A stretch of DNA of 64,000 bases from a candidate division FCPU426 bacterium. Its GTDB lineage: Bacteria; Oederibacteriota; PGYV01; Palsa-1178. This document shows, piece by piece, positions 1,940-48,447 of the stretch. The DNA lies in the NCBI GenBank assembly GCA_963840035.1, contig CAWIXE010000001.1, positions 544,001 through 608,000 of the forward strand. Direction: 5' to 3'. The position numbers and the translations under genes were made by a program. The first letter of the stretch is position 1. Every line of letters begins with the position of its first letter. The notes beneath the pieces were generated by a model, which saw only the letters and a list, made by a program, of their open reading frames with translations, made no database searches and was not told the DNA's origin.

Positions 1940-2004
1940 AAGGCGGGTAATTCAGCATAAAACCATGTTTTTAATCGACAATTGACAATCGTCAATCCCC
2001 AATC

Positions 2005-3215
2005 TAAAAAGTGTAAGATGAAATGCACCATCTGAGTAAATAAAAAGTCCCACCAAGCACTTGTGTTATTATGTTGTTTGCGAAGACACCATAAAAAACA
2101 CGAGGTGAATGATGGGACAAGTCAAGATTACCACAAGGGACAGGAAAAACAAGTATTTAAGTTTAAAAGAACGGTACCAGATTGAGGCTCTGCGCGATAA
2201 GAAGTGTACTGGGCGTGAGATAGCCGAACAACTTGGAAGAGACCCAAGCACGATAAATCGTGAGATAAAAAGAGGTTCTGTAATACAGACGGATTGGGAA
2301 CTCAAAGAGAGATTGGTATATAGGGCCGATCATGGACAGCTGGACTATGATGAAAAACAAAAGAACAAAGGACGCCCGTTAAAGATCGGGTTTGACCACG
2401 AACTAAGCAGGCATATAGAACGGAAGATAACGCAGGATAAGTATTCGCCGGCAGCAGTAATAGGCGAAATAATGCGAACCAAGCTGGGGTTTAAGACATA
2501 TCTGTGCATAAAGACAGTTTACAATTATATACATTCCGGTGTGTTTGCAGGTGTTGGAGAAGCAGAACTGGTATATGGAGGAAGGCGTAAAAAGAAGTAT
2601 CGGAAGGTCGGAAAAGTAAATAGAAGCAGGCTTTTCAAGAGCATAGAAGAAAGACCAAAGGCGGCAAACGAAAGAACGGAGTATGGTCACTGGGAGATAG
2701 ATGTTGTTAAGGGTATTAAATGGACAAGAGCATGTCTTCTGACAATCAGCGAACGTATGACAAGACAGGAAATAATAATTAAGATGAACTGTTGCAAGGT
2801 CGAAGAAGTGGACAAGGCGTTGACTGGACTCGAAAGGACTTATGGCGGTTTGTTTGCCAGGATATTCAAGACGATAACCGCAGACAACGGTTCGGAGTTT
2901 CTCGATTGGAGAACCCTTGAAGAGAGTAAATTAAAGCCAGGGACAAAAAGGACCATGCTATATTACGCGCATCCTTTCAGTTCTTTTGAAAGAGGAACCA
3001 ACGAGAATACAAACCGCATAATAAGGCGGTTCGTACCTAAAGGGACGGATATAGGGGAAGTGTCTGTAGAAACGGTAAAAAAGGCCCAAAATTGGATAAA
3101 CAACTATCCCAGAGGGATATTTGGATACAAAACAGCCAACGACATGATAATTCAAAATGCTACAAGAAAAATGTGTGGGATTCAGGGAGTGGTGCATTAA
3201 AACTTGCAACTTACC
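2005..3215 (+). mobile_element. IS30-family insertion sequence
   Basis: Imperfect inverted repeats TGTAAGATGAAATGCACCA (2012-2030) and TGGTGCATTAAAACTTGCA (3190-3208); 15-bp direct repeat CGTCAATCCCCAATC at 1990-2004 and 3216-3230. Confidence 0.88.
2109..3200 (+). CDS. IS30-family DDE transposase
   Basis: N-terminal HTH ([21 protein letters not shown]), [34 protein letters not shown]. Confidence 0.95.
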
Positions 3216-3330
3216 CGTCAATCCCCAATCGTTTTTAGCTATTGACTTAAAAGGGCAATGTGCTATTATGACCGCACAATTTGTAGGATTCGTTCTACAA
3301 GAATTTTTTAATCTAGTGGAGGTTTTAGTT

Positions 3331-3531
3331 ATGCCGAAGGGAAAAGTGAAATGGTTTAATGACAAGAAAGGTTATGGCTTCATCGAACAGGAAGGCGGAA
3401 AAGACGTGTTTGTGCACTACGCAGCAATCCAGGGCGACGGCTTCAAGACCTTAAAAGAAGGCCAGGAAGTTACTTTTGACGTCACAGAAGGCGCAAAGGG
3501 ACCGCAGGCTGCTAACGTAGTATCAGCATAA
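3331..3531 (+). CDS. cspA: Cold-shock protein
   Basis: [18 protein letters not shown]...DVFVHY...[17 protein letters not shown] before ATG 3331. Confidence 0.97.
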
Positions 3532-4468: not shown

Positions 4469-5647
4469 ATGAAGAAAAATTTCTTATTTCCGGCATTATT
4501 AACCATTTCATTATTTATACCCGCCTTTTTATTTGCCGCGGATGAAGCTGCTGCGGCTGCCGAAGCCGCTGCCATTACCGCGTCTCCTGAAGCCACTGCT
4601 GAAGCAACTGCCGCGGCCACTGTTGAAGCTACGGTTGAACCTACTGCCGTATCAACTGTTGAAACCACAGTTGAACCGACCGCCGAAGCCACTGCTGAAG
4701 CAACTGCCGCACCTACGACAATACCCACTGTAACCGAAAAAGTTGAAGTTGATACATCATATAAAGCAGATGATGAAGGCGTGGTTATACTCTCGCCAGG
4801 GGAAACATCCATGGAAGAACTTGAAAAATATATATTAACAAAAAGAAAACCCGCGCAACAGGAAGAAACCGACAACGGCGACGTGACAATGACATTTGAA
4901 CCCGAGTCAGCCGAAGAGGAAAACGGCGGGATCATACTCATGGAAGATGAGAAAAAAGGAAAGATGGAAAGCACGGGATATGTGATGGTTGAGAGGGGCG
5001 GGTTCATATCAGACAACTTCAAGGAAGACGGAATAGTATATTCGCTTGACGGCAGGGAAATACTCGCGGCCGGCGATAACGTATACATAAAGCTCACCGT
5101 GGGTAAAGGCGTTAAAAAAGGGACTGAATTCATAGTCTATGACGACTCGGAATCGGTTATAAACCCCATGACAGACGAAAATATGGGGAAAAAGATAAAG
5201 ATCGTCGCGGTAGGGAAAGTCAGGGGCAGCGCGGACGCCGATGACAACATATGGAAGGCAAAACTCACAAAGACCTACGAACCTGCCGGAAATAATTTTA
5301 AGATTAAGATCAGGAAAGAACTCAAGGATTATTACAACAAGCTTATCACAAAGATAAAGAAAAAACCGCAGCCGCTGGAAGGGTTCATCATAAGCGTAAA
5401 CGGCGGAACCCAGGGCATCAATAACAAGGACGTTGTTTACATAGACAGGGGACTTAAGGACGGGATCGCCCCCGGGGATATCCTGACCGTGGTAAGGCTC
5501 TCCGAGGACAAGGAAACCGGCGCCATGAAAAAATATAACACCATAGGAAAAGTCATGGTCATAAATACCATGAGGAGTTCCTCGGTAGGCATCATAAGCG
5601 GCCAGACTGATGTAATAAAAGTCGGGGACCTGGTAAAGACCAAATAA
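4469..5647 (+). CDS. Exported protein with Ala/Thr/Glu-rich linker and TsaP/FlgT-C-like beta domains
   Basis: Signal peptide; GDNVYIKL..G, INPMTDENMG, VYIDRGLKDGIAPGD, IKVGDLV motifs. Confidence 0.55.
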   Translation: MKKNFLFPALLTISLFIPAFLFAADEAAAAAEAAAITASPEATAEATAAATVEATVEPTAVSTVETTVEPTAEATAEATAAPTTIPTVTEKVEVDTSYKADDEGVVILSPGETSMEELEKYILTKRKPAQQEETDNGDVTMTFEPESAEEENGGIILMEDEKKGKMESTGYVMVERGGFISDNFKEDGIVYSLDGREILAAGDNVYIKLTVGKGVKKGTEFIVYDDSESVINPMTDENMGKKIKIVAVGKVRGSADADDNIWKAKLTKTYEPAGNNFKIKIRKELKDYYNKLITKIKKKPQPLEGFIISVNGGTQGINNKDVVYIDRGLKDGIAPGDILTVVRLSEDKETGAMKKYNTIGKVMVINTMRSSSVGIISGQTDVIKVGDLVKTK

Positions 5648-5705
5648 AACAACCGCCGGGCCCTTTTCCGGCGGAAACCGCAACCACCATATAGAGAGGT
5701 AAAAA

Positions 5706-7115
5706 ATGAAATTTGGCAGCAAGAAAAGCGTGCTCATTTTGTGCGGAATATTCGTAACACTTCTTGCCGTAAGTTTTACCAGGATAAACAGCAGTTATAT
5801 TTTCCTGGCAGCGGGCCTGGCCGCCTCGCTCATTTCCTTTAACGGAGGGTGGGTTAACGGGGTTTTCATGTCGCTGCTTTTTAATTTTACTTTTTACTCG
5901 CTCCACACCGCTATGGGCGTCCAGAGCATGGTTTTAAATATAGCGGTTTTTTCAGCTCTTTCTGTGCTTGCGGACAGGCTTAAGATAGGAAGCAATGCTC
6001 CGGTTCAGAAGGATTCAAATCCCGAGGAAAAAGCTTTTGTAAACAAAGTAATAAATTCGTTCATGCTTGGCCATGACATGGTACGCGAGATAAAAAAAGG
6101 GATAACAAGGAGCGAACTGCTCGCTCTATTCGCGCGCAATGTATCAAACTTGACAGGCGCCGACCAGGTGCTGGTTTATACCGGTGAAAACGCCCCGGAA
6201 GGAAAGTTAAAGCTCACGCTCTCCGCGGGAAAATACCAGGAGAGGGTCATAGAGCCTGAAGCTGAAATTGAGAGTGTACTCTGTTTGTCGGAGAAAAACC
6301 TTCCCGCAAATGAAGCCGGATTCATAAAGAGCGTCAGCGACGGGTACGCCATCATAATGCCGGTCAATGAAAAGGGAAAAGCCGGGGACATCGCTGTGCT
6401 TTACAAGGGAAATGAGTTCTCATACAGCGACATATACATAGCCGAATTTTTCAGCGCGCAGATATTTGTCATAATGGAAAAGCAGGAACTCCTTAAAAAG
6501 ATGTCGGGAAATTACGAGCGCATCATAGAAGCCCTCGCCCTGGCCATAGATACCAAGGACCACGAGACGCACGGCCACTCGCTGGCCACCATGAAGTACG
6601 CCGTAAAAATCGCGGAAAAAATGAACCTGCCTGATGAGGAAAGGGAAATGATAAAATACGCCTCCCTCCTGCATGACATAGGAAAGATAAACATAAGCAG
6701 CGCCATACTTAACAAGCCCGACAAGCTTACGGCTGAGGAATTTGACATCATAAAAAAGCACCCGGAAGAGGGCGTGCACATTTTGGACAGGATGGACATA
6801 TTCGGGGAGATACTCCCGCTTGTTATGCACCATCACGAGCATTTTGACGGCAAAGGCTACCCAAAGAAGCTAAAGGGGGACAGCATCCCGCTGGGGTCCA
6901 GAATTTGCTCGATTGCGGACGCGTACTCGGTGATGGTGGCGGACCGCCCCTACAGGAAAGCGCGCACAAGGGATGAGGCCATTAATGAGCTGAAACGCTG
7001 CTCCGGGACGCAGTTTGACAGGCAGATAGTGGATGTCTTCCTCGGGATAATAAAGGAAGAAAACACGCAGGAAGCGGCATTACATAATATTACCGGCGCA
7101 GGGCCGGTAAACTGA
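5706..7115 (+). CDS. Membrane-bound HD-GYP cyclic-dinucleotide phosphodiesterase with GAF-like middle region
   Basis: N-terminal TM helices; THGHS, LHDIGK, HHEHFDGKGYP, ADAY, RPYR, GTQFD. Confidence 0.9.
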   Translation: MKFGSKKSVLILCGIFVTLLAVSFTRINSSYIFLAAGLAASLISFNGGWVNGVFMSLLFNFTFYSLHTAMGVQSMVLNIAVFSALSVLADRLKIGSNAPVQKDSNPEEKAFVNKVINSFMLGHDMVREIKKGITRSELLALFARNVSNLTGADQVLVYTGENAPEGKLKLTLSAGKYQERVIEPEAEIESVLCLSEKNLPANEAGFIKSVSDGYAIIMPVNEKGKAGDIAVLYKGNEFSYSDIYIAEFFSAQIFVIMEKQELLKKMSGNYERIIEALALAIDTKDHETHGHSLATMKYAVKIAEKMNLPDEEREMIKYASLLHDIGKINISSAILNKPDKLTAEEFDIIKKHPEEGVHILDRMDIFGEILPLVMHHHEHFDGKGYPKKLKGDSIPLGSRICSIADAYSVMVADRPYRKARTRDEAINELKRCSGTQFDRQIVDVFLGIIKEENTQEAALHNITGAGPVN

Positions 7116-36865: not shown

Positions 36866-37203
36866 GGGGGCGACCGGATTCGACAGGTCTCGCGTAGATG
36901 TAAGGAGCATGCCAGTGCCCATGTCACTGTATAAACGTGGAACACGTAACTGCAAACGATTACGCTTTAGCAGCATAAGCTGCACCTCTTCTACTTCTTT
37001 TGCCTGCGGGATATAGAAGGGGACCAACAGCAGGCCGCTCAGTTAAGCGTTCTCCTTGCTTAGCTGCTAAGACTAAGGGAGAGTAGCGCCGGGTGATTGT
37101 GTCCGGTCAAGCAAACGGCGCGAAACCAAATACCGGAACAAGCATGTAGCCGCCTTTATCGAAACAGGTCTGGACGTGGGTTCAAGTCCCACCGCCTCCA
37201 CCA
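36866..37203 (+). ncRNA. ssrA: tmRNA; tag peptide ANDYALAA* (36952-36978)
   Basis: 5' GGGGGCGACCGGATTCGAC, tag GCA AAC GAT TAC GCT TTA GCA GCA TAA, 3' GTGGGTTCAAGTCCCACCGCCTCCACCA; close to smpB. Confidence 0.96.
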
Positions 37204-38694
37204 ATTATTGTTTTTCATTTTATAGAGAAATGAAAAATGATTTTTTACCGAAAAAGAAAGAGTTTTATTGGTAATCAAAGAGTTCAATAGTAGGATTTTC
37301 AAAAAATCACCCTGTTGAGCGAAAGTAAGAGTTTTATATCGATAAATAAAGAGATTCACGAGTTCAATAGTAAAAAGTGCTTTGTCGAGAGAACGACCCG
37401 AAAAACCCTTCCTCGCGTCAACCAACTGGGCCTCAACGTTCCTTATGAGGCCCATATACTCGGCGTTCTTTTCTTTCCAGAACGCCTCGTCAATCCTGCG
37501 GTCCGCCCGGTCGTCGTAAAGAGTGGAAACCCGACCAGTCAAAATTTTCTTTTCATTTTCCAACCGCGATATTGTCTGAGCGGAAATCTCATTGTCATTA
37601 CTGGCAGCGTTGGTCAGATGCTGCTTGATTGACTTTATGGCCTCGGCTGGCAAGTGTAACGGCGCAATTTGAGTGTGGAACAGTTTAGACATTTCCTCTG
37701 GTGAGATATAACAGTTCTTATGCTTACCCCTACCAAGAGTGCAATGATATCTTTCATACTTTCCCTTCTTATAAAACGTTCCAATAACCGAACACCCACA
37801 GAGCCCACATTTCAAAATACCGTTGAATGGAAACTTTACACAGCGTTCTTTTTGTTTGCGCGGGAAAACACCATAAGAGTCCTGTGCTTTTTGCCACAGG
37901 TCTCTTGAAACCAGAGGTTTGTGCGCGCCTTTATAGAACCCACCGTTCCAATTAAACTCGCCATAATAAAACGGGTCGCGTAATAACTTTGCCATTCTGG
38001 ACCTAACAACTCTCATGTTCCCTGGAAACTTAGTACCCAACTTGCGAGACCTCAAACCCTTTTGGTAGAGTATCTCTACTATCTCGTCTATGGTTTTATA
38101 CTTGGCCTTTAACTCAAAAGCCATTTTAACAAGCGGTCCACGGACAGGGTCGATATCAAGGACCTTTGTGACAGAGTTGTTAAGATAACCCAGCGGTGCT
38201 ATAGCCGGGAACTGGCCTTTCTCTACCGTAGAGTCCATACCTTTGCGGATACGTTTGGAAAGGTCGGCCGAATATTTTTCAGCCATTAAGACCTCTATCC
38301 CGAACATAAAAAATTCATCACTATCGGAATACTTATGTAGTTTCTTGTTAGTTCGGGCGAAATGAACCGTAACGCCGTCGTGTCGTATCAGTTTGCGAAC
38401 TCTGATTTTATCATCCTCATTTCTGGTCATTCTATCCGGGACATCAAAGACAAGGTGTTTGATTTTATTTTTTGCAACGTAGTCCAACATCTCTACAAAG
38501 TTCTTACGAACCCGGTCGCCGTCGTCCTTGCTGTCGTTTTTCCAAGCCGATTCAGGCCCGCGCCACAACTTTACTATTTCCAAACCGTTCAAATCCGCGT
38601 AATGCCTACCTGTTTTTTCTTGTGAGTCCATGCTTGTGTTGTCCTGTTGTTCCTCTGAAGAAACCCGGACATATAAAACCGCCAATTCTTTCAT
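37156..38694 (-). CDS. Large serine recombinase (integrase)
   Basis: LYVRVSSEEQ catalytic motif, DRMTR, APLGY recombinase domain, CGLCG..YHC Zn ribbon, coiled coil. Confidence 0.93.
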   Translation of the reverse strand: MKELAVLYVRVSSEEQQDNTSMDSQEKTGRHYADLNGLEIVKLWRGPESAWKNDSKDDGDRVRKNFVEMLDYVAKNKIKHLVFDVPDRMTRNEDDKIRVRKLIRHDGVTVHFARTNKKLHKYSDSDEFFMFGIEVLMAEKYSADLSKRIRKGMDSTVEKGQFPAIAPLGYLNNSVTKVLDIDPVRGPLVKMAFELKAKYKTIDEIVEILYQKGLRSRKLGTKFPGNMRVVRSRMAKLLRDPFYYGEFNWNGGFYKGAHKPLVSRDLWQKAQDSYGVFPRKQKERCVKFPFNGILKCGLCGCSVIGTFYKKGKYERYHCTLGRGKHKNCYISPEEMSKLFHTQIAPLHLPAEAIKSIKQHLTNAASNDNEISAQTISRLENEKKILTGRVSTLYDDRADRRIDEAFWKEKNAEYMGLIRNVEAQLVDARKGFSGRSLDKALFTIELVNLFIYRYKTLTFAQQGDFLKILLLNSLITNKTLSFSVKNHFSFLYKMKNNNWWRRWDLNPRPDLFR

Positions 38695-38850
38695 GACACA
38701 CCACCGTAAAAAGATTTGTTGTGGACTCTAACGCGTGAGTGATTTTAAGTCAAGAAATACCAATTTAGACCAAATTAATTAGTTTTTGTCTATTTTTGTT
38801 TTTGCGTAAATAATTGTTGACAAGCGGTATTTCCATGATATATTTGCGCT

Positions 38851-39068
38851 GGCAGAAAGAAATTAAGTCGCGCTTTGTTTGTGGGGTTCGCAAGCCCACA
38901 GTATGGGCGACACCCAGCCACGCGGGATATGCGCTCCGGGCTGATTAACTCATGAAGTCAGTAGACGGATTCACGAGTTTAAATCAGTGCAAGGAGCAGC
39001 GCAAATGCCCAGAAATCCGAACATCAATAACCCCTGCGTTATAGGTCTGTCCGTAATTACTGTTTGCC
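38851..39068 (+). ncRNA. Candidate structured RNA (~218 nt) of unknown class
   Basis: TTGACA (38817)..TATATT promoter; 5' GGCAGAAAGAAATTA pairs with 3' TAATTACTGTTTGCC; several nested internal stems. Confidence 0.5.
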
Positions 39069-39222
39069 TGCTCACTCATCTTATGTTCTGCAACGTGAAA
39101 CCAATCTTAAAATATTTTTAATTTAAGGTCATAAATCTGCTTATGTTTTTATATTTACAGAAGAGATAGGAACGGAAAGGACAGGAGTTCGAAGGCATGT
39201 CGTGCCGAAAAAGGAGTAGTAA

Positions 39223-40611
39223 ATGGTCAATCAAAACAACGCAAATGACAAGAATCAGAGGCCTGGTGGGACACCATTAAGTCCGATACACGGACAATGC
39301 TCCATCCCAAACGACAACCATGCCTCTGATATTTTTTTATCCCCTAAACAATACTATCGAGTATCAGTTGAAATTGCTCAATGGGCACATTCCGCTAATA
39401 TTAAATCTGCCAACCATAAAGGACAACACAAGTACGGAATCGCCGATTCTCTGGTTTACTCTGTGTTATTTGAAAGGTTTTGTTTCTATTTTAGTCAAGA
39501 CCAGTTAAAAGATGGTTGGTTCTACCAAAGTATCAGACAATTATCCAAAGCCACAGGTTTGTCTTTAAAACGAGTGCATATAGCATTGCGGTTACTTTCG
39601 AGGCATCAAGGTAATTGTATTGAGGTTAGAAAAGGCAATGCAAGTGTTGGAGAAGCAAATTGGTATAAAATTGTCAACGCCGAACTTGAACCAAGATATA
39701 CAAAAACGATAGGTTCAAAATGCAAAAATATGAATTATAAAAAAACATGCAATTACTGCTCGTATTTTATTGAATGTCAAAAAAAGAAACTTTTGATATA
39801 TATTCCCGGGAATAAAATCTTTGCACCCATAAGAAACAAATACATAACTATCCCCCCACGCATTGTAAAGACCCTTGGTATTAATGCTGCAGCGATTTAT
39901 GGAGTATTAAAAGGACAGCAAATAACAAACTTAAAGAAAAGCAAACATGATGCCCAAAAATCCATTTCTAAATTGTCCAATTTGCTTATGTTAAAACCCG
40001 ACACGGTAATAAGCAACCTAAAGAAACTTGAAAGTAAAGGACTTATAGTTATCAGCAGAAAAATGCGTGGTAATTGTAATACTTACAAAACAAACCCAAT
40101 AAACAAAGTTATACCTGTTTCCAAATCCAACGACGCCACCCCTATTCAGCCACAGCCCTGTTCCAATATGGATACAGGTTTAGTACATGGGACTACCCCC
40201 ATTCAGCCACGGGGTAGTCCCATTCAGAAACATATAATAAATAAAACAAGTAAATATACAGACAGTAAGACATTAAATACACATATAGAAATAGTTAAAT
40301 GCGGCCAAGAAGAAATGGCCGCATGTGAAGATATATTTCTTTTTGAAGAACAAAACCAAAAACCCTCAATATGTGAAGTGTCTTGTTTTGATAAGTGTAA
40401 CTCTAATGAAGGAAGTGTTTTTGGAAATGGGTTTGGTGGTTATGGATGGACCATTGCGAAGTTACGTAGCGAAGGCATGGCGGATGCCGATATCAAGTCA
40501 TTGGTTGCGGAACAACAGCAGCAGTTACAATTCGGGATAGTGCATGACTTGGTGCGTATTTTTTCTATGTCTTACGCATGTCCCAGAGAGGAGGTGGAAA
40601 ACGACAAGTAA
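39223..40611 (+). CDS. Replication-initiator-like protein with two winged-HTH regions and a Cys cluster
   Basis: GWFYQSIRQLSKATGLS..V..AL..L and SISKLSNLLMLKPDTVISNLKKLESKGLI; CxxxxxxxxCxxC between them; AAGGAG RBS. Confidence 0.6.
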   Translation: MVNQNNANDKNQRPGGTPLSPIHGQCSIPNDNHASDIFLSPKQYYRVSVEIAQWAHSANIKSANHKGQHKYGIADSLVYSVLFERFCFYFSQDQLKDGWFYQSIRQLSKATGLSLKRVHIALRLLSRHQGNCIEVRKGNASVGEANWYKIVNAELEPRYTKTIGSKCKNMNYKKTCNYCSYFIECQKKKLLIYIPGNKIFAPIRNKYITIPPRIVKTLGINAAAIYGVLKGQQITNLKKSKHDAQKSISKLSNLLMLKPDTVISNLKKLESKGLIVISRKMRGNCNTYKTNPINKVIPVSKSNDATPIQPQPCSNMDTGLVHGTTPIQPRGSPIQKHIINKTSKYTDSKTLNTHIEIVKCGQEEMAACEDIFLFEEQNQKPSICEVSCFDKCNSNEGSVFGNGFGGYGWTIAKLRSEGMADADIKSLVAEQQQQLQFGIVHDLVRIFSMSYACPREEVENDK

Positions 40612-40654
40612 AAGAAATGTACTTTGATTAACTCTACGGAGAAAGGAGTCAGTT

Positions 40655-40849
40655 ATGCGCAATAGAACGGAATGGAAAGACCCGGATGAGGTTATGTTCG
40701 GGGAGTACATAGACCCGGACGAACGTAAGTTCGAGGTCTGGCACGGCCCAGAGGAAGCCGCGGTGGCCCACTGGATTAAAACGATAGAAGAACGCAGGAA
40801 AACACCCGGATACCAGAATCTACAAGGAGGAAAAAAATGGGAAGAGTAA
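40655..40849 (+). CDS. Small hypothetical protein
   Basis: AAGGAG RBS; overlaps the next gene's start. Confidence 0.55.
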   Translation: MRNRTEWKDPDEVMFGEYIDPDERKFEVWHGPEEAAVAHWIKTIEERRKTPGYQNLQGGKKWEE

Positions 40850-41382
40850 AACAATGGGTAATAGAAATGCAAGAGTGTGGATACATAGGTGAAAAACTTA
40901 CTGTTCCAGGATACGAGGGAAAGAAAACAAAATTCAGGAGGCCAACAATGGTTGACTTTAAAGAAGAGGTTTTTGATTTAAGCATGAAGCAGATAGAAGA
41001 TGGCGATTTCAACAAAAAAGTCGAGGCAACTGCGACACTAAGCAGAGACGACCATCGGTATTGGAAAGAAGTACTTTATCAAAACGCAAGGACCGGGTAC
41101 TACTACCTTGTAGTAGAAGGCGGATGCATATCACCTTGGGGACAGATGATAGAAAACCCTTCCAATATAGTTTATTGGACCAGCATGGGCAAATTGTACA
41201 TTGAAGGAAAAAAAGGCGAGGAAAAAGTATACGCGCCATGCCAGAGGATATACACTCTCGTTGGCCAAGAGGAAGAAGCCCTTTGGATTAAAAAAGTAGA
41301 AACAGAAGAAAAAATGGGTATATGTAAAATCGAGAGATTTACCCAAGAAAAAAAGATTGAGTCCATTCCATACGTTGGGTAG
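40837..41382 (+). CDS. Hypothetical protein (paralog of 41437-41895)
   Basis: AGGAGG RBS; YWKEVLYQNARTGYYYLVVEGGCISPW motif. Confidence 0.7.
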   Translation: MGRVKQWVIEMQECGYIGEKLTVPGYEGKKTKFRRPTMVDFKEEVFDLSMKQIEDGDFNKKVEATATLSRDDHRYWKEVLYQNARTGYYYLVVEGGCISPWGQMIENPSNIVYWTSMGKLYIEGKKGEEKVYAPCQRIYTLVGQEEEALWIKKVETEEKMGICKIERFTQEKKIESIPYVG

Positions 41383-41436
41383 TAAATGCTTTAATCAAGA
41401 CAGGTTGAGAGCAAACACTCTTGCCTATACTAAAAC

Positions 41437-41895
41437 ATGAGGAGAAAAATAATGTTTGATTATGGAAACGAAATGTTCAACTTAACGGCAAGTGACTTAA
41501 GGAAAAGACCGTTCCTTAAGGTATGTGGATTCAAGGCAACTATTAAGCGCAACGAAGAAGAATACTGGGAAGAAACTCTTTATTGGAATGAATCCACAAA
41601 GAAACACTACATTGTGGGCTCAGGTGGTTATAATTCACCATGGATGGAAGTGGCTGATACTCCAACAAAAATTCTATATTGGAACAAGCATGGTAGATTA
41701 CACATTGATAGAACAATGTTGGTTGAGTACGGATGGTGCCCAGGCAGGCGGATATATCAAGTTACAACAGATGAAATGAAGCAGTGGCGTCAGGAAAACG
41801 TAAAAAAGATAGGTGATGGAACATGTAGGATTAGCGTTGTAAGGAGAACGAAGTCCAGCAGACCAGTCAAAACTAAAACTAAAAGTAAAAAGTAA
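41437..41895 (+). CDS. Hypothetical protein (paralog of 40837-41382)
   Basis: YWEETLYWNESTKKHYIVGSGGYNSPW motif. Confidence 0.7.
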   Translation: MRRKIMFDYGNEMFNLTASDLRKRPFLKVCGFKATIKRNEEEYWEETLYWNESTKKHYIVGSGGYNSPWMEVADTPTKILYWNKHGRLHIDRTMLVEYGWCPGRRIYQVTTDEMKQWRQENVKKIGDGTCRISVVRRTKSSRPVKTKTKSKK

Positions 41896-41946
41896 TTTAG
41901 TTGTGCTGACGATTAAGTGCGGAGGGATATATTCCCCAATAATCAC

Positions 41947-42132
41947 TTAATGAACTTTTGGTGACTTGCTAATGCGCGGCGAAGGGTCTGACACAATGAC
42001 TTGTGAGTGGTTCTGGTAACGGCGTAGACCGTCTGGTTGTACATATTCCTCTATCCAATACTGTTTCTTGTAGCCGGGCATTTCGAGAGTAACGACGCAG
42101 CCCTTGAAAGCATTAGGTTTATTTTTATCCAT
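41947..42132 (-). CDS. Small hypothetical protein
   Basis: AAGGAG RBS on the minus strand. Confidence 0.5.
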   Translation of the reverse strand: MDKNKPNAFKGCVVTLEMPGYKKQYWIEEYVQPDGLRRYQNHSQVIVSDPSPRISKSPKVH

Positions 42133-42298
42133 TTTTTAACTCCTTGAATTTTGTCGGTCTTTACTGATACCGCAATAGACCGTTTGCGTCAATATCTTTC
42201 CCTTTCCTGCCCACGTACGACCCCGTTGTTACGAGCGGAATCGGGCCTATTTTGAGCCATGTCGCAGAGCCCCCTGACCTTACCCACCCCTGATTAAA

Positions 42299-42862
42299 TC
42301 AAGGTGACGTAGTGGTCGTATTGGCCTTTTCTATTTTGAAATGCCTAAGGCCAACATTGTGGAACACTCTTATCCCATGGTCTTTGAGTTCGTTTACGAA
42401 ACCACCTGGAAAGCGAAGATCCTTAGCAAGGAAAACAAGGTCTTTTACCTGCTCTCTCTTTATGGCGTCCAATTCTACGAGGTCGCTGACACTTTTCGCG
42501 GCCTCAAAGTTTTCAGCCGTAAAGGTCTTTAATGAGACAAGAGAAAGGCGGTTGTTCCTTGCGAACTTGTTGATTATCATACGTGTCTTTAGTGCCTCGC
42601 AATTCGATGCAGACCTGCTTGAAAGGACTATTATCCCTACGGCGTTGTGTGTCATTTTCAAATCGTTCAAGAACTGGACTACGCTCAGCATGTTGGCAGG
42701 CGACGGATTGAATTGCCGTGTGAACCATGCGTTCACGGTATGCGTGCTTACCCCCAGCAACATGGACATCTCTGCGTTTGTGAGTTTGAGTTCCCGGCGT
42801 ATTTTATTCAACTCCAACAACATAGGACTGGCTATCTGATAATCTATATCTTCTGTTTCCAT
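42299..42862 (-). CDS. XRE-type HTH protein with a degenerate resolvase-like C-terminal domain
   Basis: IRRELKLTNAEMSMLLGVSTHTVNAW...P; then AVGIIVLSS..E..K..INKFARNNRLSLV. Confidence 0.65.
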   Translation of the reverse strand: METEDIDYQIASPMLLELNKIRRELKLTNAEMSMLLGVSTHTVNAWFTRQFNPSPANMLSVVQFLNDLKMTHNAVGIIVLSSRSASNCEALKTRMIINKFARNNRLSLVSLKTFTAENFEAAKSVSDLVELDAIKREQVKDLVFLAKDLRFPGGFVNELKDHGIRVFHNVGLRHFKIEKANTTTTSP

Positions 42863-43057
42863 TTTCCCCTCCGCGATTCGTGTGTGTTTGGGCTTGGGAT
42901 TTTGGTCATGCCCACCAACACCTTGAAATATCAACCGATACTACTTAATGTTAGTAAATACCTTTTTATAGCCAAGTTTGAACCCGTTTTGTATGGATAA
43001 AATACAATAAAGGTGCTAAAATTACTCAATCAATATTTCTAAAATATAGGTGGTGTT

Positions 43058-44167
43058 ATGAGTAAGAAAGCAGGTTTAGCAAAGCATAAGTTCCTTTTGG
43101 GGGAGTTATTCTGTGGTCCTGGTGGTTTGGCTTTAGGTGCTATCAGTTCCGTCATTAAAAATAAGACCTCAAACTTAACAATTGGTCATTCATGGGCAAA
43201 TGATTACGATGAAGATACATGTAAAACCTATGCACATAATATATGCCCAAAAAGTCCTGAAACAGTTATATGTGAGGACGTTAGAAAACTAAATATTGAA
43301 AAACTTCCTGAAATTGACGCGTTTGCATATGGATTCCCTTGTAATGATTTTAGTATTGTAGGAAAACAAAAAGGTTTTGATGGAGAATTTGGACCATTAT
43401 ATACATATGGTGTCAAAATCATTAATAAATTTAGGCCAAAATTCTTTATTGCAGAAAATGTTGGCGGATTAAGAAACGCAAATGAAGGCAAGGCCTTTAA
43501 AAAGATATTACACGATTTACGTAGTTCGGGAAATGGTTATGAGTTGACGACTAACCTATACAAATCAGAAGAATATGGAGTCCCTCAGACAAGACATAGG
43601 ATAATAATAGTTGGAATAGATAAGAAATATGGCATGAGATTTGAAGTTCCAGCACCTACTACAAAAGGTGACCCTATTACAACAAGGGAAGCATTTGAAA
43701 ATCCAATAATACAAAAAGATGCGCCAAATAATGATTTTACAAAAGTGTCTGATGTAGTAATCGAACGGTTAAAACTAATAAAGCCCGGTCAAAATGTCTG
43801 GAATGCCGATTTACCTCAGCATTTGAAATTGAATGTAAAAGGTGCAAAATTAAGTCAAATTTATAAACGACTTGACCCAAATAAGCCATCCTATACGCTT
43901 ACTGGCAGTGGCGGAGGTGGCACGCATGGATATCATTATGAACACCCAAGGCCATTAACTAATCGTGAAAGAGCAAGAATTCAAACCTTTCCTGACTGGT
44001 TTACTTTTATTGGTTCAAGAGAGAGTGTAAGAAAGCAAATTGGTATGGCTGTACCTGTGAAACTATCAAATATCATTTTTACATCTGTTTTGAAAATGTT
44101 TGCACATATCGATTATCCAAGTACGAAACCAAGTGTTGAAGAAGAAACGCAAGAGGTCGTATTTTAA
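43058..44167 (+). CDS. C5-cytosine DNA methyltransferase
   Basis: ELFCGPGG (I), GFPCNDFS (IV), AENV (VI), PQTRHR (VIII), RERARIQTFPD (IX), QIGMAVP (X). Confidence 0.96.
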   Translation: MSKKAGLAKHKFLLGELFCGPGGLALGAISSVIKNKTSNLTIGHSWANDYDEDTCKTYAHNICPKSPETVICEDVRKLNIEKLPEIDAFAYGFPCNDFSIVGKQKGFDGEFGPLYTYGVKIINKFRPKFFIAENVGGLRNANEGKAFKKILHDLRSSGNGYELTTNLYKSEEYGVPQTRHRIIIVGIDKKYGMRFEVPAPTTKGDPITTREAFENPIIQKDAPNNDFTKVSDVVIERLKLIKPGQNVWNADLPQHLKLNVKGAKLSQIYKRLDPNKPSYTLTGSGGGGTHGYHYEHPRPLTNRERARIQTFPDWFTFIGSRESVRKQIGMAVPVKLSNIIFTSVLKMFAHIDYPSTKPSVEEETQEVVF

Positions 44168-44185
44168 TAATAAAAGGGGTAAAAA

Positions 44186-45154
44186 ATGACTGCAGAAGAA
44201 GTTCTACTCAAAATTTCGGAATTTATCCATACAAGCCCCGAGGAAAGCGCAAAAATATTTGAAAAAGCAGTAGCGAGCAAAGAGATTACCGATGACAAAG
44301 ATACCGGTCTGATAGATGACTGGTTTAATAACAGATTTAAATCCAACATTGTATTTATAGACCAAGAAGGTTATGCAAAAATGTGCATTGATGCGCTTAA
44401 AATTGTTGGAACTATTGCGGCCACTGATTATGGAAGTAGCAGACAACGAGACCTCGGCCAATTGTGGGCAGATATGACTCGTGGATATTTAGGTGAACTT
44501 GCTTTTACAAAATTGTTGAAGGAAAGATGGGATATAGATTCCACATTAGACCACAGTGCAGGGGCATTGGACGATTTTATAAACTTAGACATCCACAAAA
44601 TCAAAAAGCCAAACGAACTTGAACGCCCTCCAAAGTTGAACATTGGAATAAAAACAACAAAATGGAATGGCATATGGCTTGATATCCCAGGAGACCAATT
44701 TAATCATTCAGATATCCATATATTTATAAAAGTTGGTACTGGTAGAGACCATTTATTTGCTTACTTTAGAGAAATAAGTGTATTTAAAGATAAAATTTTG
44801 AAAAAAGGAACTGATAGTGGCATCTTGAACCAGTCAGAAGCGGATGATTTGTATGATAAACTTCCAAAATTTCATTCCATCCCCGCATACATTTGTGGCT
44901 TTGTTGAAAGAGATAAAAAATATAAAAAACTATCATATGGTGGGTCGAAAGGTAGAAAAAATTATAAAATTGACGAATGGCATGGTCCAATGGAACCGTC
45001 TGACTTACCAATTATAAAAGAAAAAGAAGAAGTTTACGGTAAAGTTTCCTTTGAAGGTATCGGTGAATTTTCAAATAGCAAACGATACTTATTTAATGCT
45101 GGTAATTTATTATGGAAAAAAGAAGATTGGGACAAAGTTATAGAAAGGATTTAA
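44186..45154 (+). CDS. Putative type II restriction endonuclease
   Basis: Directly downstream of the MTase; GYLGELAF..D..IGIKTTK PD-(D/E)XK-like pattern. Confidence 0.7.
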   Translation: MTAEEVLLKISEFIHTSPEESAKIFEKAVASKEITDDKDTGLIDDWFNNRFKSNIVFIDQEGYAKMCIDALKIVGTIAATDYGSSRQRDLGQLWADMTRGYLGELAFTKLLKERWDIDSTLDHSAGALDDFINLDIHKIKKPNELERPPKLNIGIKTTKWNGIWLDIPGDQFNHSDIHIFIKVGTGRDHLFAYFREISVFKDKILKKGTDSGILNQSEADDLYDKLPKFHSIPAYICGFVERDKKYKKLSYGGSKGRKNYKIDEWHGPMEPSDLPIIKEKEEVYGKVSFEGIGEFSNSKRYLFNAGNLLWKKEDWDKVIERI

Positions 45155-45258
45155 AATTAGGCAACATTATCCTAGCCGTCAATTATCATAACTGCTAACC
45201 CATTGAAATAGGTTGACATTTTACCTCTGGAAATTCAACGAAAGAGGAGGTAAAATAT

Positions 45259-46833
45259 ATGTGGTTCATGAAGAAAAAGAAAGAAAAGGGAAAGAGAAAA
45301 TACACAAAAAGCGACTCCGCCGGTAAAATCTACTCAAAAGAAGAAAAACTAAAACTGCTAAAAGAATTTGAACAGATAGGTGCGCCTATTACTATGTTCT
45401 GTAAGTGGTATGGAATGGGCGTCGGTACTTTTAAAAGCTGGCAAGAAAGGTACAAAACAGGCGGTGAAGAGGGGCTGGAAGATAACCGCGGCGGCAAAGT
45501 AGCGCAGGAAGTACCGGAAGCGGTAAAAGCGGAAATAGTCAAATTAAAGCTGGAAAATCCCGGAATTGGAGTTAAGAAAATCGGGGATTATTTGATGCGC
45601 AATAAGTTCGTAAAAGTATGCCGCGACGGTATTGAAAAAGTCCTCCGAACCGACCCTCAGACAGCAACAATGGTACAGGAAAAAAGCCTGCGGCATGGAA
45701 ATAGTCAAAAGGAACCGCAGCGTTTTGAAAGAAGCAAACCCGGCGACATGTACCAGATGGATATAATGACATTTATGCTGCAGGGGCTGTACCGGATATA
45801 TGTAATAGCATGTCTGGATGATTATTCGCGGTTTGTCGTCAGTATAGGGGTATTTCGGAACCAAACCAGCGACAGGGTCCTGGATGTGCTAAAAAACGCG
45901 ATAGAAAAGTACGGCATGCCAAAAGAAGTGCTTACTGATAACGGCAGGCAGTTTGCCAGTTGGAGGGGGAAAAGCACATTTCAAAAATTCCTTACAAGAA
46001 GCGGAATAAGCCATTTGAGAAGCCGGCCGTATCATCCCCAAACCTGCGGAAAAGTTGAATCGCTCTGGCGGAATATGTACCAGGAATTACTAAGTAAAGA
46101 GCCGATATCCAGCTTTGAAGACGCGCAGGAAAAGATAGGAAAATGGGTGGAATGGTATAACTTCAAAAGGCCGCATCAGGGGATTGATGGGTTACTGCCT
46201 GCTGACAGGTTTTTCAGCGTTGAAAAGTCGGTGCGTGAAGTTATGGAAAAAGGGGCAGGAATGGTAAAAGACGCGCTAATTGTTGACCCGAGAAAATTAA
46301 AAGAGCCTATGTATTTAATCGGAAAAATAGGCGGAAAAGAAATACGGGTAATAGCAAAAGAAGGAAGTGTTATGGTTGAGGGGTTAGATGCAGTGGAGGA
46401 AAAAAAGGAAAATAAAGAAAATAAGGGGGTAATTGAAAATGGAACAGGAGAAAATTCAGCAGGAAATGATGGAACAGAAATCCACGAAGTACTACAGGGA
46501 AATCCCATACGAGGTGAAGTTTCAGGCAGTACTGAAAGTAATGGCAAAGGAAAAGAAGGTGAAACAGGTCTGCGAGGAGATGGATATATCGAGGGAGACG
46601 TTCCGGGAGTGGAAGAAAATAGCGCTGGAAGGGATAGCCAGGGCGTTCCTGAAGACGGAGAAGAGAGGCAGGAAGCCGAAGAACTACGTGAAGGAAGAGG
46701 ATCTGAGGGAAACAGTGACAAAGGCGCAGGAAGAACAGCGGAAGCTGGAGGAAAAGATCCGGATACTGGAGGAAGAAAAGAAAAAGGCGACACAGGAACT
46801 GCAGATAGCCAGGAAAGCAACGAGCTTCTTTGA
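45259..46833 (+). CDS. IS481-like DDE transposase
   Basis: HTH; RFERSKPGDMYQMD, LDDYSR, VLTDNGRQF, RPYHPQTCGKVE, YNFKRPHQGI..PADRF. Confidence 0.9.
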   Translation: MWFMKKKKEKGKRKYTKSDSAGKIYSKEEKLKLLKEFEQIGAPITMFCKWYGMGVGTFKSWQERYKTGGEEGLEDNRGGKVAQEVPEAVKAEIVKLKLENPGIGVKKIGDYLMRNKFVKVCRDGIEKVLRTDPQTATMVQEKSLRHGNSQKEPQRFERSKPGDMYQMDIMTFMLQGLYRIYVIACLDDYSRFVVSIGVFRNQTSDRVLDVLKNAIEKYGMPKEVLTDNGRQFASWRGKSTFQKFLTRSGISHLRSRPYHPQTCGKVESLWRNMYQELLSKEPISSFEDAQEKIGKWVEWYNFKRPHQGIDGLLPADRFFSVEKSVREVMEKGAGMVKDALIVDPRKLKEPMYLIGKIGGKEIRVIAKEGSVMVEGLDAVEEKKENKENKGVIENGTGENSAGNDGTEIHEVLQGNPIRGEVSGSTESNGKGKEGETGLRGDGYIEGDVPGVEENSAGRDSQGVPEDGEERQEAEELREGRGSEGNSDKGAGRTAEAGGKDPDTGGRKEKGDTGTADSQESNELL

Positions 46834-46939
46834 AAAAAACGATGAAGACGGCGCAAAAAAAAACGCCAATATGCGGAAAGTGTTAAAAGAAATATACTCA
46901 GAAGTGCCGAAGAAACCGTACAAAACGGAGGAAGTATAA
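46433..46939 (+). CDS. IS3-like OrfA (HTH + coiled coil)
   Basis: YEVKFQAVLKV..KKVKQVCEEMDISRETFREWKK, followed by a coiled coil. Confidence 0.8.
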   Translation: MKMEQEKIQQEMMEQKSTKYYREIPYEVKFQAVLKVMAKEKKVKQVCEEMDISRETFREWKKIALEGIARAFLKTEKRGRKPKNYVKEEDLRETVTKAQEEQRKLEEKIRILEEEKKKATQELQIARKATSFFEKNDEDGAKKNANMRKVLKEIYSEVPKKPYKTEEV

Positions 46940-47904
46940 AGGCGTATTTTGATTCAATCGGGGTTCCAAGGGAGTATTATTATGCGTGGAAAAAGAAAGA
47001 TACCCTGGAACCCCAAAAGACAGGGCCGAAACATGCGCCGTGGGCCTTGTCTGGTGAAACAATACTCCGGGTGCTGGAATTAAAACGGAGGTTTTCGGAA
47101 ATATCAACTAATTATGTTTTGGCAATAAAAGCGGGTATATCGCCAAGCAGCGTTGCAAAAATAGTTTATGAGTATTTTGGGCCCAGGAAAAAGCAAAAAG
47201 CGGGAAAGAAAGAGTACAAGTCAGTTGAATGGCTAAAAAAGCATGTCAGCTGGGCGCTAGATACGATTAAAATACGCTGCGAAGAAGGGTATGTGTATGT
47301 TCAGCTGGTATTTGAGGAGTACTCAAGGTGTGTGCTTGGTTGGATTATGAGTTATTCAAATACCGGTGAAAAGGCGAAAATCCTGCTTGAACGCGTGATG
47401 AACGAGCAGGGAATAAAACCGCTTGTGGTTAAAACTGACAGGGGTTCTGAGTTTCAGAACGAAGTATTAATAAGTTATTTGAAAGAAAAAGAGATTCTCA
47501 CGATGCCCAGCCCCGGGCATTATCCGCTTTTCAACGGGAAACTGGAGCGCGAAAATCAGATATTTGAGAAATATCTGAAAACTGAAAAAGGAGGGTTAAA
47601 TTACGAAAAAGTATACGCCAAATTTGAAAGAGCGATTTATGAGATTAATCACGAAATGCCGCGGCGTATATTTGACGGCAAAACAAGCGCTGAAGTTTTC
47701 AAAAACGGAGAAATATACAAAAACGAAGAAAAGCATGAGCTAATTAAAAAAGCTGAAAATGCGATTGCGGAAATTGAAAAACAGAAAATACCGGGACTGG
47801 ATAAACTTGACGTTGTGAGGAAGGCCGTGGTAAAATCAGTTGTAGATATGGGGTTGTGTTTGATCAAATCCGGAGAACAAAATGTCAACCAATTTGCGGG
47901 GTAA
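46855..47904 (+). CDS. IS3-like OrfB DDE transposase, probably reached by -1 frameshift at A9 (46855-46863)
   Basis: Frame open from 46846 to 47904; WALDTI, KTDRGSEF, NGKLEREN; lies in the -1 frame relative to OrfA. Confidence 0.8.
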   Translation, partial: KKKRQYAESVKRNILRSAEETVQNGGSIKAYFDSIGVPREYYYAWKKKDTLEPQKTGPKHAPWALSGETILRVLELKRRFSEISTNYVLAIKAGISPSSVAKIVYEYFGPRKKQKAGKKEYKSVEWLKKHVSWALDTIKIRCEEGYVYVQLVFEEYSRCVLGWIMSYSNTGEKAKILLERVMNEQGIKPLVVKTDRGSEFQNEVLISYLKEKEILTMPSPGHYPLFNGKLERENQIFEKYLKTEKGGLNYEKVYAKFERAIYEINHEMPRRIFDGKTSAEVFKNGEIYKNEEKHELIKKAENAIAEIEKQKIPGLDKLDVVRKAVVKSVVDMGLCLIKSGEQNVNQFAG

Positions 47905-47907
47905 AAA

Positions 47908-48447
47908 GTGACAATAATTGACAGGCAGGACAATCATGAAGACCCTGAGTTTATCGCAGCGTGTAAGAAGAGCGATGCTGAAAAGGAACTGAGAGAAGCC
48001 AACTTAAGACGCGATTTTGGGGCAAAAGTTCTCAGTGAGCAAGGCAAAGATAAGACAATTGTGTTGGATAAGGTTGGTATGATATTCCTTGCGAGGTCTG
48101 GTAAGGCACTATATACGACCTCTTGCGAGATAGAGGTAGATGGCGGATACACGGCCGAGATAGGGTTTAGAGAGGACACATACCCGGAACTGTTGCGGAT
48201 ATTGAAACAAAGGTTACCTGAGCATTACAGGACAAAGATAACTGACAAACTTGAAAAGGAGTACACAAAGCCCATATACATACCCTGGTTCACAGCGTTT
48301 GACTTTCGAATCGAAGCAGTGTTAGGTTCGCCATTACACCATCAGGATGGCAGAGAGTTTATCCCTTTCTATGCCACTAAGGTTGAGGAAATTAGAGTGG
48401 AATACAGTAAACGTAAGAAGAGGCAGTCAAAAAAACCACAAGTTTAG
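47908..48447 (+). CDS. Hypothetical protein, 5' end lies inside the IS right end (likely truncated)
   Basis: Predicted GTG start falls within the terminal IR. Confidence 0.5.
   Translation: MTIIDRQDNHEDPEFIAACKKSDAEKELREANLRRDFGAKVLSEQGKDKTIVLDKVGMIFLARSGKALYTTSCEIEVDGGYTAEIGFREDTYPELLRILKQRLPEHYRTKITDKLEKEYTKPIYIPWFTAFDFRIEAVLGSPLHHQDGREFIPFYATKVEEIRVEYSKRKKRQSKKPQV

Follow-up and report, generated by a model that had tools for sequence, protein, structure and literature searches.

The insertion sequence (IS) described here is a real, active-looking member of a widespread family of two-transposase elements, whose insertions are free of target duplications and linked to deletions of host DNA; the mechanism is what we infer from these properties. 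The element lies in a contiguous stretch of 64,000 nucleotides, referred to as the window. DDE insertion sequences are understood to use one transposase, which acts symmetrically on the two ends and produces a short target duplication. Two intact paralogues that are kept across many phyla, together with the absence of a duplication, imply a different transpososome. Our reading, held tentatively and at somewhat less than an even chance, is that there is one transposase per end, that each end joins a separate site, and that the insertion replaces the host DNA between these sites. Equally tentative is the idea that this is an undescribed class of transposon, in which each insertion replaces hundreds to thousands of host bases.

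Three overlapping plus-strand open reading frames (ORFs), A, B and C, are enclosed by imperfect inverted repeats, and nothing else lies between the ends (Table 1). Three copies of the 2,765-bp element are present in the genome. They are 100% identical and their identity breaks off exactly at 45168 and 47932; thus, the element moves as one unit. A fourth A-B-C locus in the same genome is divergent (57% and 30% identity). The left and right ends match at 40/55 positions with one gap, a score that was reached by 0/2000 shuffles. These results bear out an initial annotation of the window, which had delimited the element by ~55-bp imperfect repeats and had suggested a search for other copies: both genes and the same ends recur in the three identical copies, and relatives are found elsewhere. 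The same annotation had found no internal repeats, and none were detected here. The scan of the two other identical copies with an end profile returned the two terminal ends alone, a repeat scan of the element gave no internal pair similar to these ends, and in complete related elements the profile matches just 5' of A and just 3' of C, with no match between. The left end starts with TAT, not with TGT. Among related elements, TGT is found at 24/25 left ends and 39/39 right ends, each end having been set at the nearest TGT/ACA. The left end of the window copy is TAT, yet the element has multiplied, and the left ends of loci L154 and L044 are likewise TAT. In 25 left and 39 right non-redundant ends, drawn from unevenly sampled clades, the outer box consistently differs (ACCAG on the left versus a GCTA-like box on the right), and the inner box is common to both ends. 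An inward-facing TTGACA hexamer is located in the inner box of both ends (45215-45220 and 47881-47886). A 664-bp MITE-like derivative (L181:1474-2137) contains both ends and a fragment of C, also without a target duplication.

Table 1. Features of the element and of its flanks, in positions of the window.
Feature	Position	Strand	Description
Whole element	45168..47932	+	Delimited by left and right ends
Left end	45168..45222	+	Starts TAT; outer box and inner GGTTGACA box
Transposase A, 524 aa	45259..46833	+	HTH-HTH-rve(DDE)-helix-beta hairpin, then Gly/Glu-rich tail
Low-complexity tail of A overprinted on B	46399..46830	+	Open longer than synonymous B-frame shuffles predict
ORF B	46433..46939	+	HTH with coiled-coil-like segment; offset by +1 from the A frame
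Transposase C, open frame 352 aa	46846..47904	+	HTH-HTH-rve(DDE)-helical hairpin
A9 run at B-to-C frame change	46855..46863	+	-1 here; putative slippage site
Right end	47879..47932	-	Starts TGT
Right flank of window copy	47933..48447	+	Host gene without its first ~65 codons, compared to a 257-aa open frame in genome G006
5mC methylase	43058-44167		Restriction-modification pair left of the element
Endonuclease	44186-45154		Restriction-modification pair, directly left of the element

Both ORFs for which D-D-E triads had been reported (YQMD/TDNG/GKVE in A and WALD/TDRG/GKLE in C) match the Pfam rve model above its cut-off of 32.6 bits, with 73 bits for A and 42.1 bits for C. The triad of A, D168 (45760), D227 (45937) and E267 (46057), is invariant in 83/83 sequences. 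That of C, D139 (47260), D198 (47437) and E234 (47545), is kept in 71/71, 71/71 and 70/71 sequences, respectively, at a mean identity across the family of 30% (versus 51% for A). In 14/15 pairs, the dN/dS ratios are in the range of 0.01-0.23 (A) and 0.10-0.36 (C), the remaining pair being saturated; thus, both genes are under purifying selection. With triads this close to invariant and purifying selection on both genes, neither DDE domain is decaying across the family, and conservation implies that both A and C would be catalytically active. C is broken in three copies (L061, L108 and L177), as expected of decaying copies or of long-read errors. The second ORF had been taken for an integrase core preceded by a separate HTH protein; it turned out to be more than that. 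In a profile comparison, A and C align over 285 columns with 99.4% probability and 18% identity, and the alignment spans both HTH domains, so that C is a whole HTH-HTH-DDE transposase paralogous to A. Structure models of A (pLDDT 80) and C (pLDDT 91) both have an HTH-HTH-RNase H-like fold and resemble retroviral integrases, IstA and TnsB, the latter two being the best structural matches of A.

ORF B overlaps A by 401 nt, in agreement with the ~400 nt noted before, and B may alternatively start at the ATG at 46439, which a G-rich stretch precedes. In 51/72 loci, there is not a single HTH gene but two or three paralogues. The tail of A stays open across B for a median of 170 codons versus 46 codons in synonymous shuffles, and the difference is significant at p<0.05 in 33/52 cases, kin included. 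Loci L072, L104 and L107 have three tandem HTH paralogues that are overprinted by a 350-codon tail of A. In L080, L086, L101, L102 and L103, the A frame is open through the slippage run, a condition that is not conserved in sister elements; one added A in those five loci would fuse A to C in a two-DDE polypeptide.

A run of A residues is found at the B-C junction in 70/71 elements (A8/A9 in 67, A7 in 1, and G6A6 in 2). The frame of C relative to B is -1 in 42, +1 in 26, and the same in 2 (n=70). Each frame class runs through whole clades, and homopolymer errors may explain single cases. A study of IS1447 is said to have found +1 slippage. According to a review of IS frameshifting, no IS with +1 ribosomal frameshifting has been identified, whereas a +1 shift by transcriptional realignment is used by several, and runs of 9 A are sites of slippage (PMC5009743). 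Given that account and the mixture of +1 and -1 shifts at the A8-A9 run, C is likely to be reached from B by transcriptional slippage on the run of A rather than by a -1 ribosomal shift.

When the genome collection was searched with an alignment of 44 A proteins, at least 574 relatives were detected; the 80 best matches among them were examined. According to record titles, these 80 belong to Elusimicrobia, Desulfobacterota lineages, Verrucomicrobia, Planctomycetota, Nitrospirota, Fibrobacterota, Lentisphaerae and a few Proteobacteria, and nearly all come from metagenome bins. C is downstream of A in 68/80 loci; 7 contigs end within 550 nt, and in 2 loci C has begun where the contig breaks off. 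Where 1,000 nt or more follow A, C is present in 70/73 loci, the three without it being L030, L044 and L057. It should be noted that these counts overstate the sample size, because copies from one genome and from close kin are not independent. In the reciprocal, C-anchored search, 11/401 genomes of one phylum matched. Of these 11, the 10 other than the centre genome yielded 10 C matches, each preceded by A and B; the centre genome itself contributed two more matches, both of them fragments of C. In metagenomes, A is upstream in 3/3 of the C loci with enough upstream sequence (5 loci in total). A full-length C without A was never met in the loci examined. The family matched in 3/99 genomes of the window's own phylum, and other genomes hold 5 and 8 full copies of related elements. 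The plasmid collection yielded no close relative, all matches being below 60% identity, and the best IS481-annotated plasmid matches are ~25-31% identical. The A and C trees agree (patristic r=0.97 for 63 elements, 7 near-identical or broken loci having been left out): 22/30 well-supported A splits recur in the C tree, and the 3 conflicts are all shallow.

These data bear on the possibility that the element is a chance composite, in which an IS3-like element is nested in, or fused to, an IS481-like element, or that the second DDE gene is a dispensable passenger. The B-C pair does have the OrfA/OrfB layout of IS3, and C is broken or missing in six loci (L061, L108, L177, L030, L044 and L057). 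Conversely, internal ends are lacking, the same arrangement occurs in many phyla with congruent A and C trees, the C triad is near-invariant under purifying selection, and full-length C does not occur without A in the loci examined. We consider a composite very improbable, and nesting or a passenger DDE gene is largely excluded. The initial annotation had argued against nesting, and had named independent occurrence of the two genes as evidence that would count against a single element; A is found without C in just 3/73 loci, and neither ends nor duplications that would delimit a second IS were seen inside the element. On sequence comparison, the architecture is established as that of one two-transposase IS family across many phyla, not of nested ISs. 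The family is apparently undescribed: nothing matching was found in the literature, compared at the level of titles and abstract openings.

Several loci depart from the common arrangement. L030 (positions 1-1465) contains A alone, without the tail, B or C, followed by the right end; it is a single match in an incomplete genome and represents either a deletion derivative or a one-transposase form. L016 (2389-5472) and L017 (2634-5420) are divergent single-copy A-B-C loci with intact triads, in which C has similar-looking C-terminal extensions. The end profile detected no right end in these two loci, and they are possibly immobilised, domesticated, or carrying different ends. L021 contains two copies (2029-3419 and 4606-5996) of another, separate element of OrfA/OrfB type; its DDE ORF resembles A more closely than C does.

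Target duplications of 4-40 bp were found in 0/44 distinct insertions with both ends, 100% identical recent copies included. Flank matches of 2 bp and 3 bp in these 44 insertions (2 and 1, respectively) are at chance level (3.2 and 0.9 expected). No exact long duplication of up to 499 bp was found in 38 insertions. When mismatches in 4-40 bp, or ends shifted by up to 2 bp, were allowed, the 44 insertions produced one 8-bp match with one mismatch, at a shifted end only. As a control, we used an IS30-family element (window 2001-3215) with 10 copies in the same genome, 10/10 of which have unusually long duplications of ~14 bp. Therefore, general scrambling of the genome is not the cause of the missing duplications. 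Swapping of flanks between copies was also considered; it gave one 6-bp left/right match, in genome G101, which joins unrelated reading frames and was rejected. There were no other cross-copy matches in five multi-copy genomes or among the three own copies.

The bases outside the ends are biased. Counting outward, A is preferred at the fifth position from either end, and T at the first position from the left end. T adjoins the left end in 31/58 and the right end in 18/62 cases (p=0.009), so that the target bias differs modestly between the two ends. The A/T bias would fit a 5-bp staggered target and thus an ordinary insertion, the short duplication of which was soon erased by very frequent adjacent deletions or by IS6-like intramolecular replicative transposition; A and C could then serve the two pathways. 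An overview of the IS6 family describes how intramolecular replicative transposition deletes DNA beside an IS (PMC7986276), and the match in G101 is in line with this reading. However, none of the 44 copies keeps a duplication, even among recent copies that are 100% identical, and that sole cross-copy match joins unrelated frames. We regard erasure of an original duplication as unlikely.

Deletions could be measured at two sites, on contig C2 and at L075, by comparison with relatives and not with true empty alleles. In the C2 copy, 1,600 N-terminal codons of a giant gene are joined to a 34-codon end, which is 8,950 and ~8,300 nt further on in two relatives (8.3-9.0 kb missing); the right-hand 34-aa piece is a tail type common in this genome. 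The missing middle of the giant gene was not found in the genome. At L075, the two flanks correspond to parts of a 1,968-aa frame that lie ~3.6 kb from each other in G530. The ~65 codons missing from the gene to the right of the window copy are not found elsewhere in the genome. The flanks of L099 are collinear in G116, where there is ~4.4 kb more DNA, and the parts near the junctions do not align. The empty-site comparisons for L074, L073, L083, L123, L056 and L099 did not span both junctions. Blunt insertion without loss was rejected as a candidate, as in ~7 insertions a Pfam domain is cut at one junction with no continuation across the element; the scan included 46 abutting frames of at least 70 aa and 3 frames from the own genome. 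The segment to the left of the element (window 37156-45154) encodes a type II restriction-modification pair along with a large serine recombinase and a small HTH protein, and it looks like an island that the element has cut on its right side. The second own copy (L019) abuts a 198-bp 5' gene fragment (G000:C1:344063-344260) in an Rhs-like cassette array. The fragment shares 89% identity with an intact copy that is located at a distance of 150 kb and that we take, by motif, to be a UvrD/PcrA-like helicase gene.

Under the mechanism that we propose, A and C, as paralogous DDE transposases of one IS, would act one per end, C being made as a B-C fusion through slippage on the run of A. A would be assigned to the left end and B-C to the right end, and a single event would require both enzymes. 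Each end would join its own site in the target, and the DNA between these sites would be lost instead of duplicated. The deletion would arise in the insertion step itself; at each junction, the second target strand may be cut either by the end-bound complex or during flap processing by the host. The lack of a target duplication would probably reflect this loss of host DNA between two ends that are each inserted by one enzyme. Two conserved triads, the co-divergence of A and C, the asymmetry of the ends, the lack of duplication, and deleted flanks where these are testable are consistent with one transposase per end. The left outer box varies with the HTH region of A (partial r 0.37-0.38), and the right end varies with C. 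Kinship confounds these partial correlations, and so does linkage, because the right inner box is part of the 3' end of the C gene, whose stop codon is inside the right end. The reverse is seen within the large clade, where the left outer box compared to the catalytic core favours C. The inner box on both ends also fits one protein that binds both, which counts against one transposase per end, as do A alone with a right end in L030 and the absence of C from L044 and L057.

Some of the same observations would fit a division of labour by chemical step, in which, at both termini, one enzyme cleaves the 3' ends and transfers them, and the other cuts the second strand, of donor or target. In Tn7, TnsB and TnsA split the cutting work. 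Such a division would generate the same duplication-free, deletion-linked product. It would agree with conserved and co-diverging triads, with an inner box common to both ends, with the far stronger conservation of A compared to C, and with the existence of an A-only element that has a right end. However, C has two HTH domains of its own and another via B, like an end-binding transposase, and the left/right asymmetry is conserved in both the outer box and the adjacent target base. Division by chemical step is therefore somewhat unlikely in our assessment.

If one transposase indeed serves each end, the element would be a natural insertion-plus-deletion machine. The family offers a clean genetic separation of two ends or of two chemical steps. 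It is also a cause of gene loss on the kilobase scale in uncultured bacteria, and it may be of use as a tool to replace DNA segments. Annotation pipelines split such elements into unrelated "IS481" and "IS3" fragments.

An IS481 element normally has a single DDE transposase. A matches the IS481 model (NCBIfam NF033577) over its full length with 218.7 bits (220.1 for a relative), just short of the cut-off of 224, and the HTH-HTH-rve build of A and the TGT…ACA-type ends are also IS481-like, whereas C scores 49-78 bits, far below the cut-off. Unlike IS481, the family has a second DDE transposase (70/73 loci), 1-3 HTH genes, and a length of 2.6-3.1 kb. Members of IS481 have target duplications of 2-15 bp, mostly 6 bp, according to the family descriptions in PMC10045372; in contrast, 0/44 insertions have one of at least 4 bp here.

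The label "IS3-like frameshifted OrfAB" in the initial annotation holds for the layout, in which a frame change links an HTH/coiled-coil ORF to a DDE ORF, and C shares with IS3 the spacing of 35 residues between the second D and E. It does not hold for family membership: with the IS3 model (NF033516; cut-off 160), C scores 61 bits and the natural in-frame B-C of L069 86 bits. C fits the IS481 model better than the IS3 model and is far below both cut-offs. The shift is +1 or -1 among relatives, and B-C is only half of the element, with no left end of its own and with B starting inside A. IS3 elements use a copy-out circle intermediate with abutted ends; two low-coverage DNA contig sets contained scattered pieces of our element and no abutted-end joints. 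The target duplications of 3-5 bp given for IS3 members in the same descriptions (PMC10045372) are also lacking here.

As in Tn7, with TnsA and TnsB, two nucleases are dedicated to one element, and the best structural matches of A point to TnsB and to IstA of IS21. TnsA, however, is a restriction-enzyme-like nuclease and not a DDE enzyme. Tn7-like elements and IS21 have an AAA+ ATPase helper, and their target is duplicated. In our element there is no AAA+ ATPase or targeting gene between the ends, just A, B and C. Copies of IS6 elements (IS26) can also stand at deletion junctions, through intramolecular transposition. IS26-type elements are described as having one transposase, a length of ~0.8 kb and generally 8-bp duplications (PMC7986276), unlike the two transposases and 2,765 bp found here. 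Finally, the account of Tetrahymena Tpb1 and Tpb6 in PMC5238731 portrays two paralogues with predicted intact catalysis, both of which are needed and which are speculated to form a heterodimer; those proteins are domesticated eukaryotic piggyBac excisases, whereas A and C belong to a mobile bacterial element.
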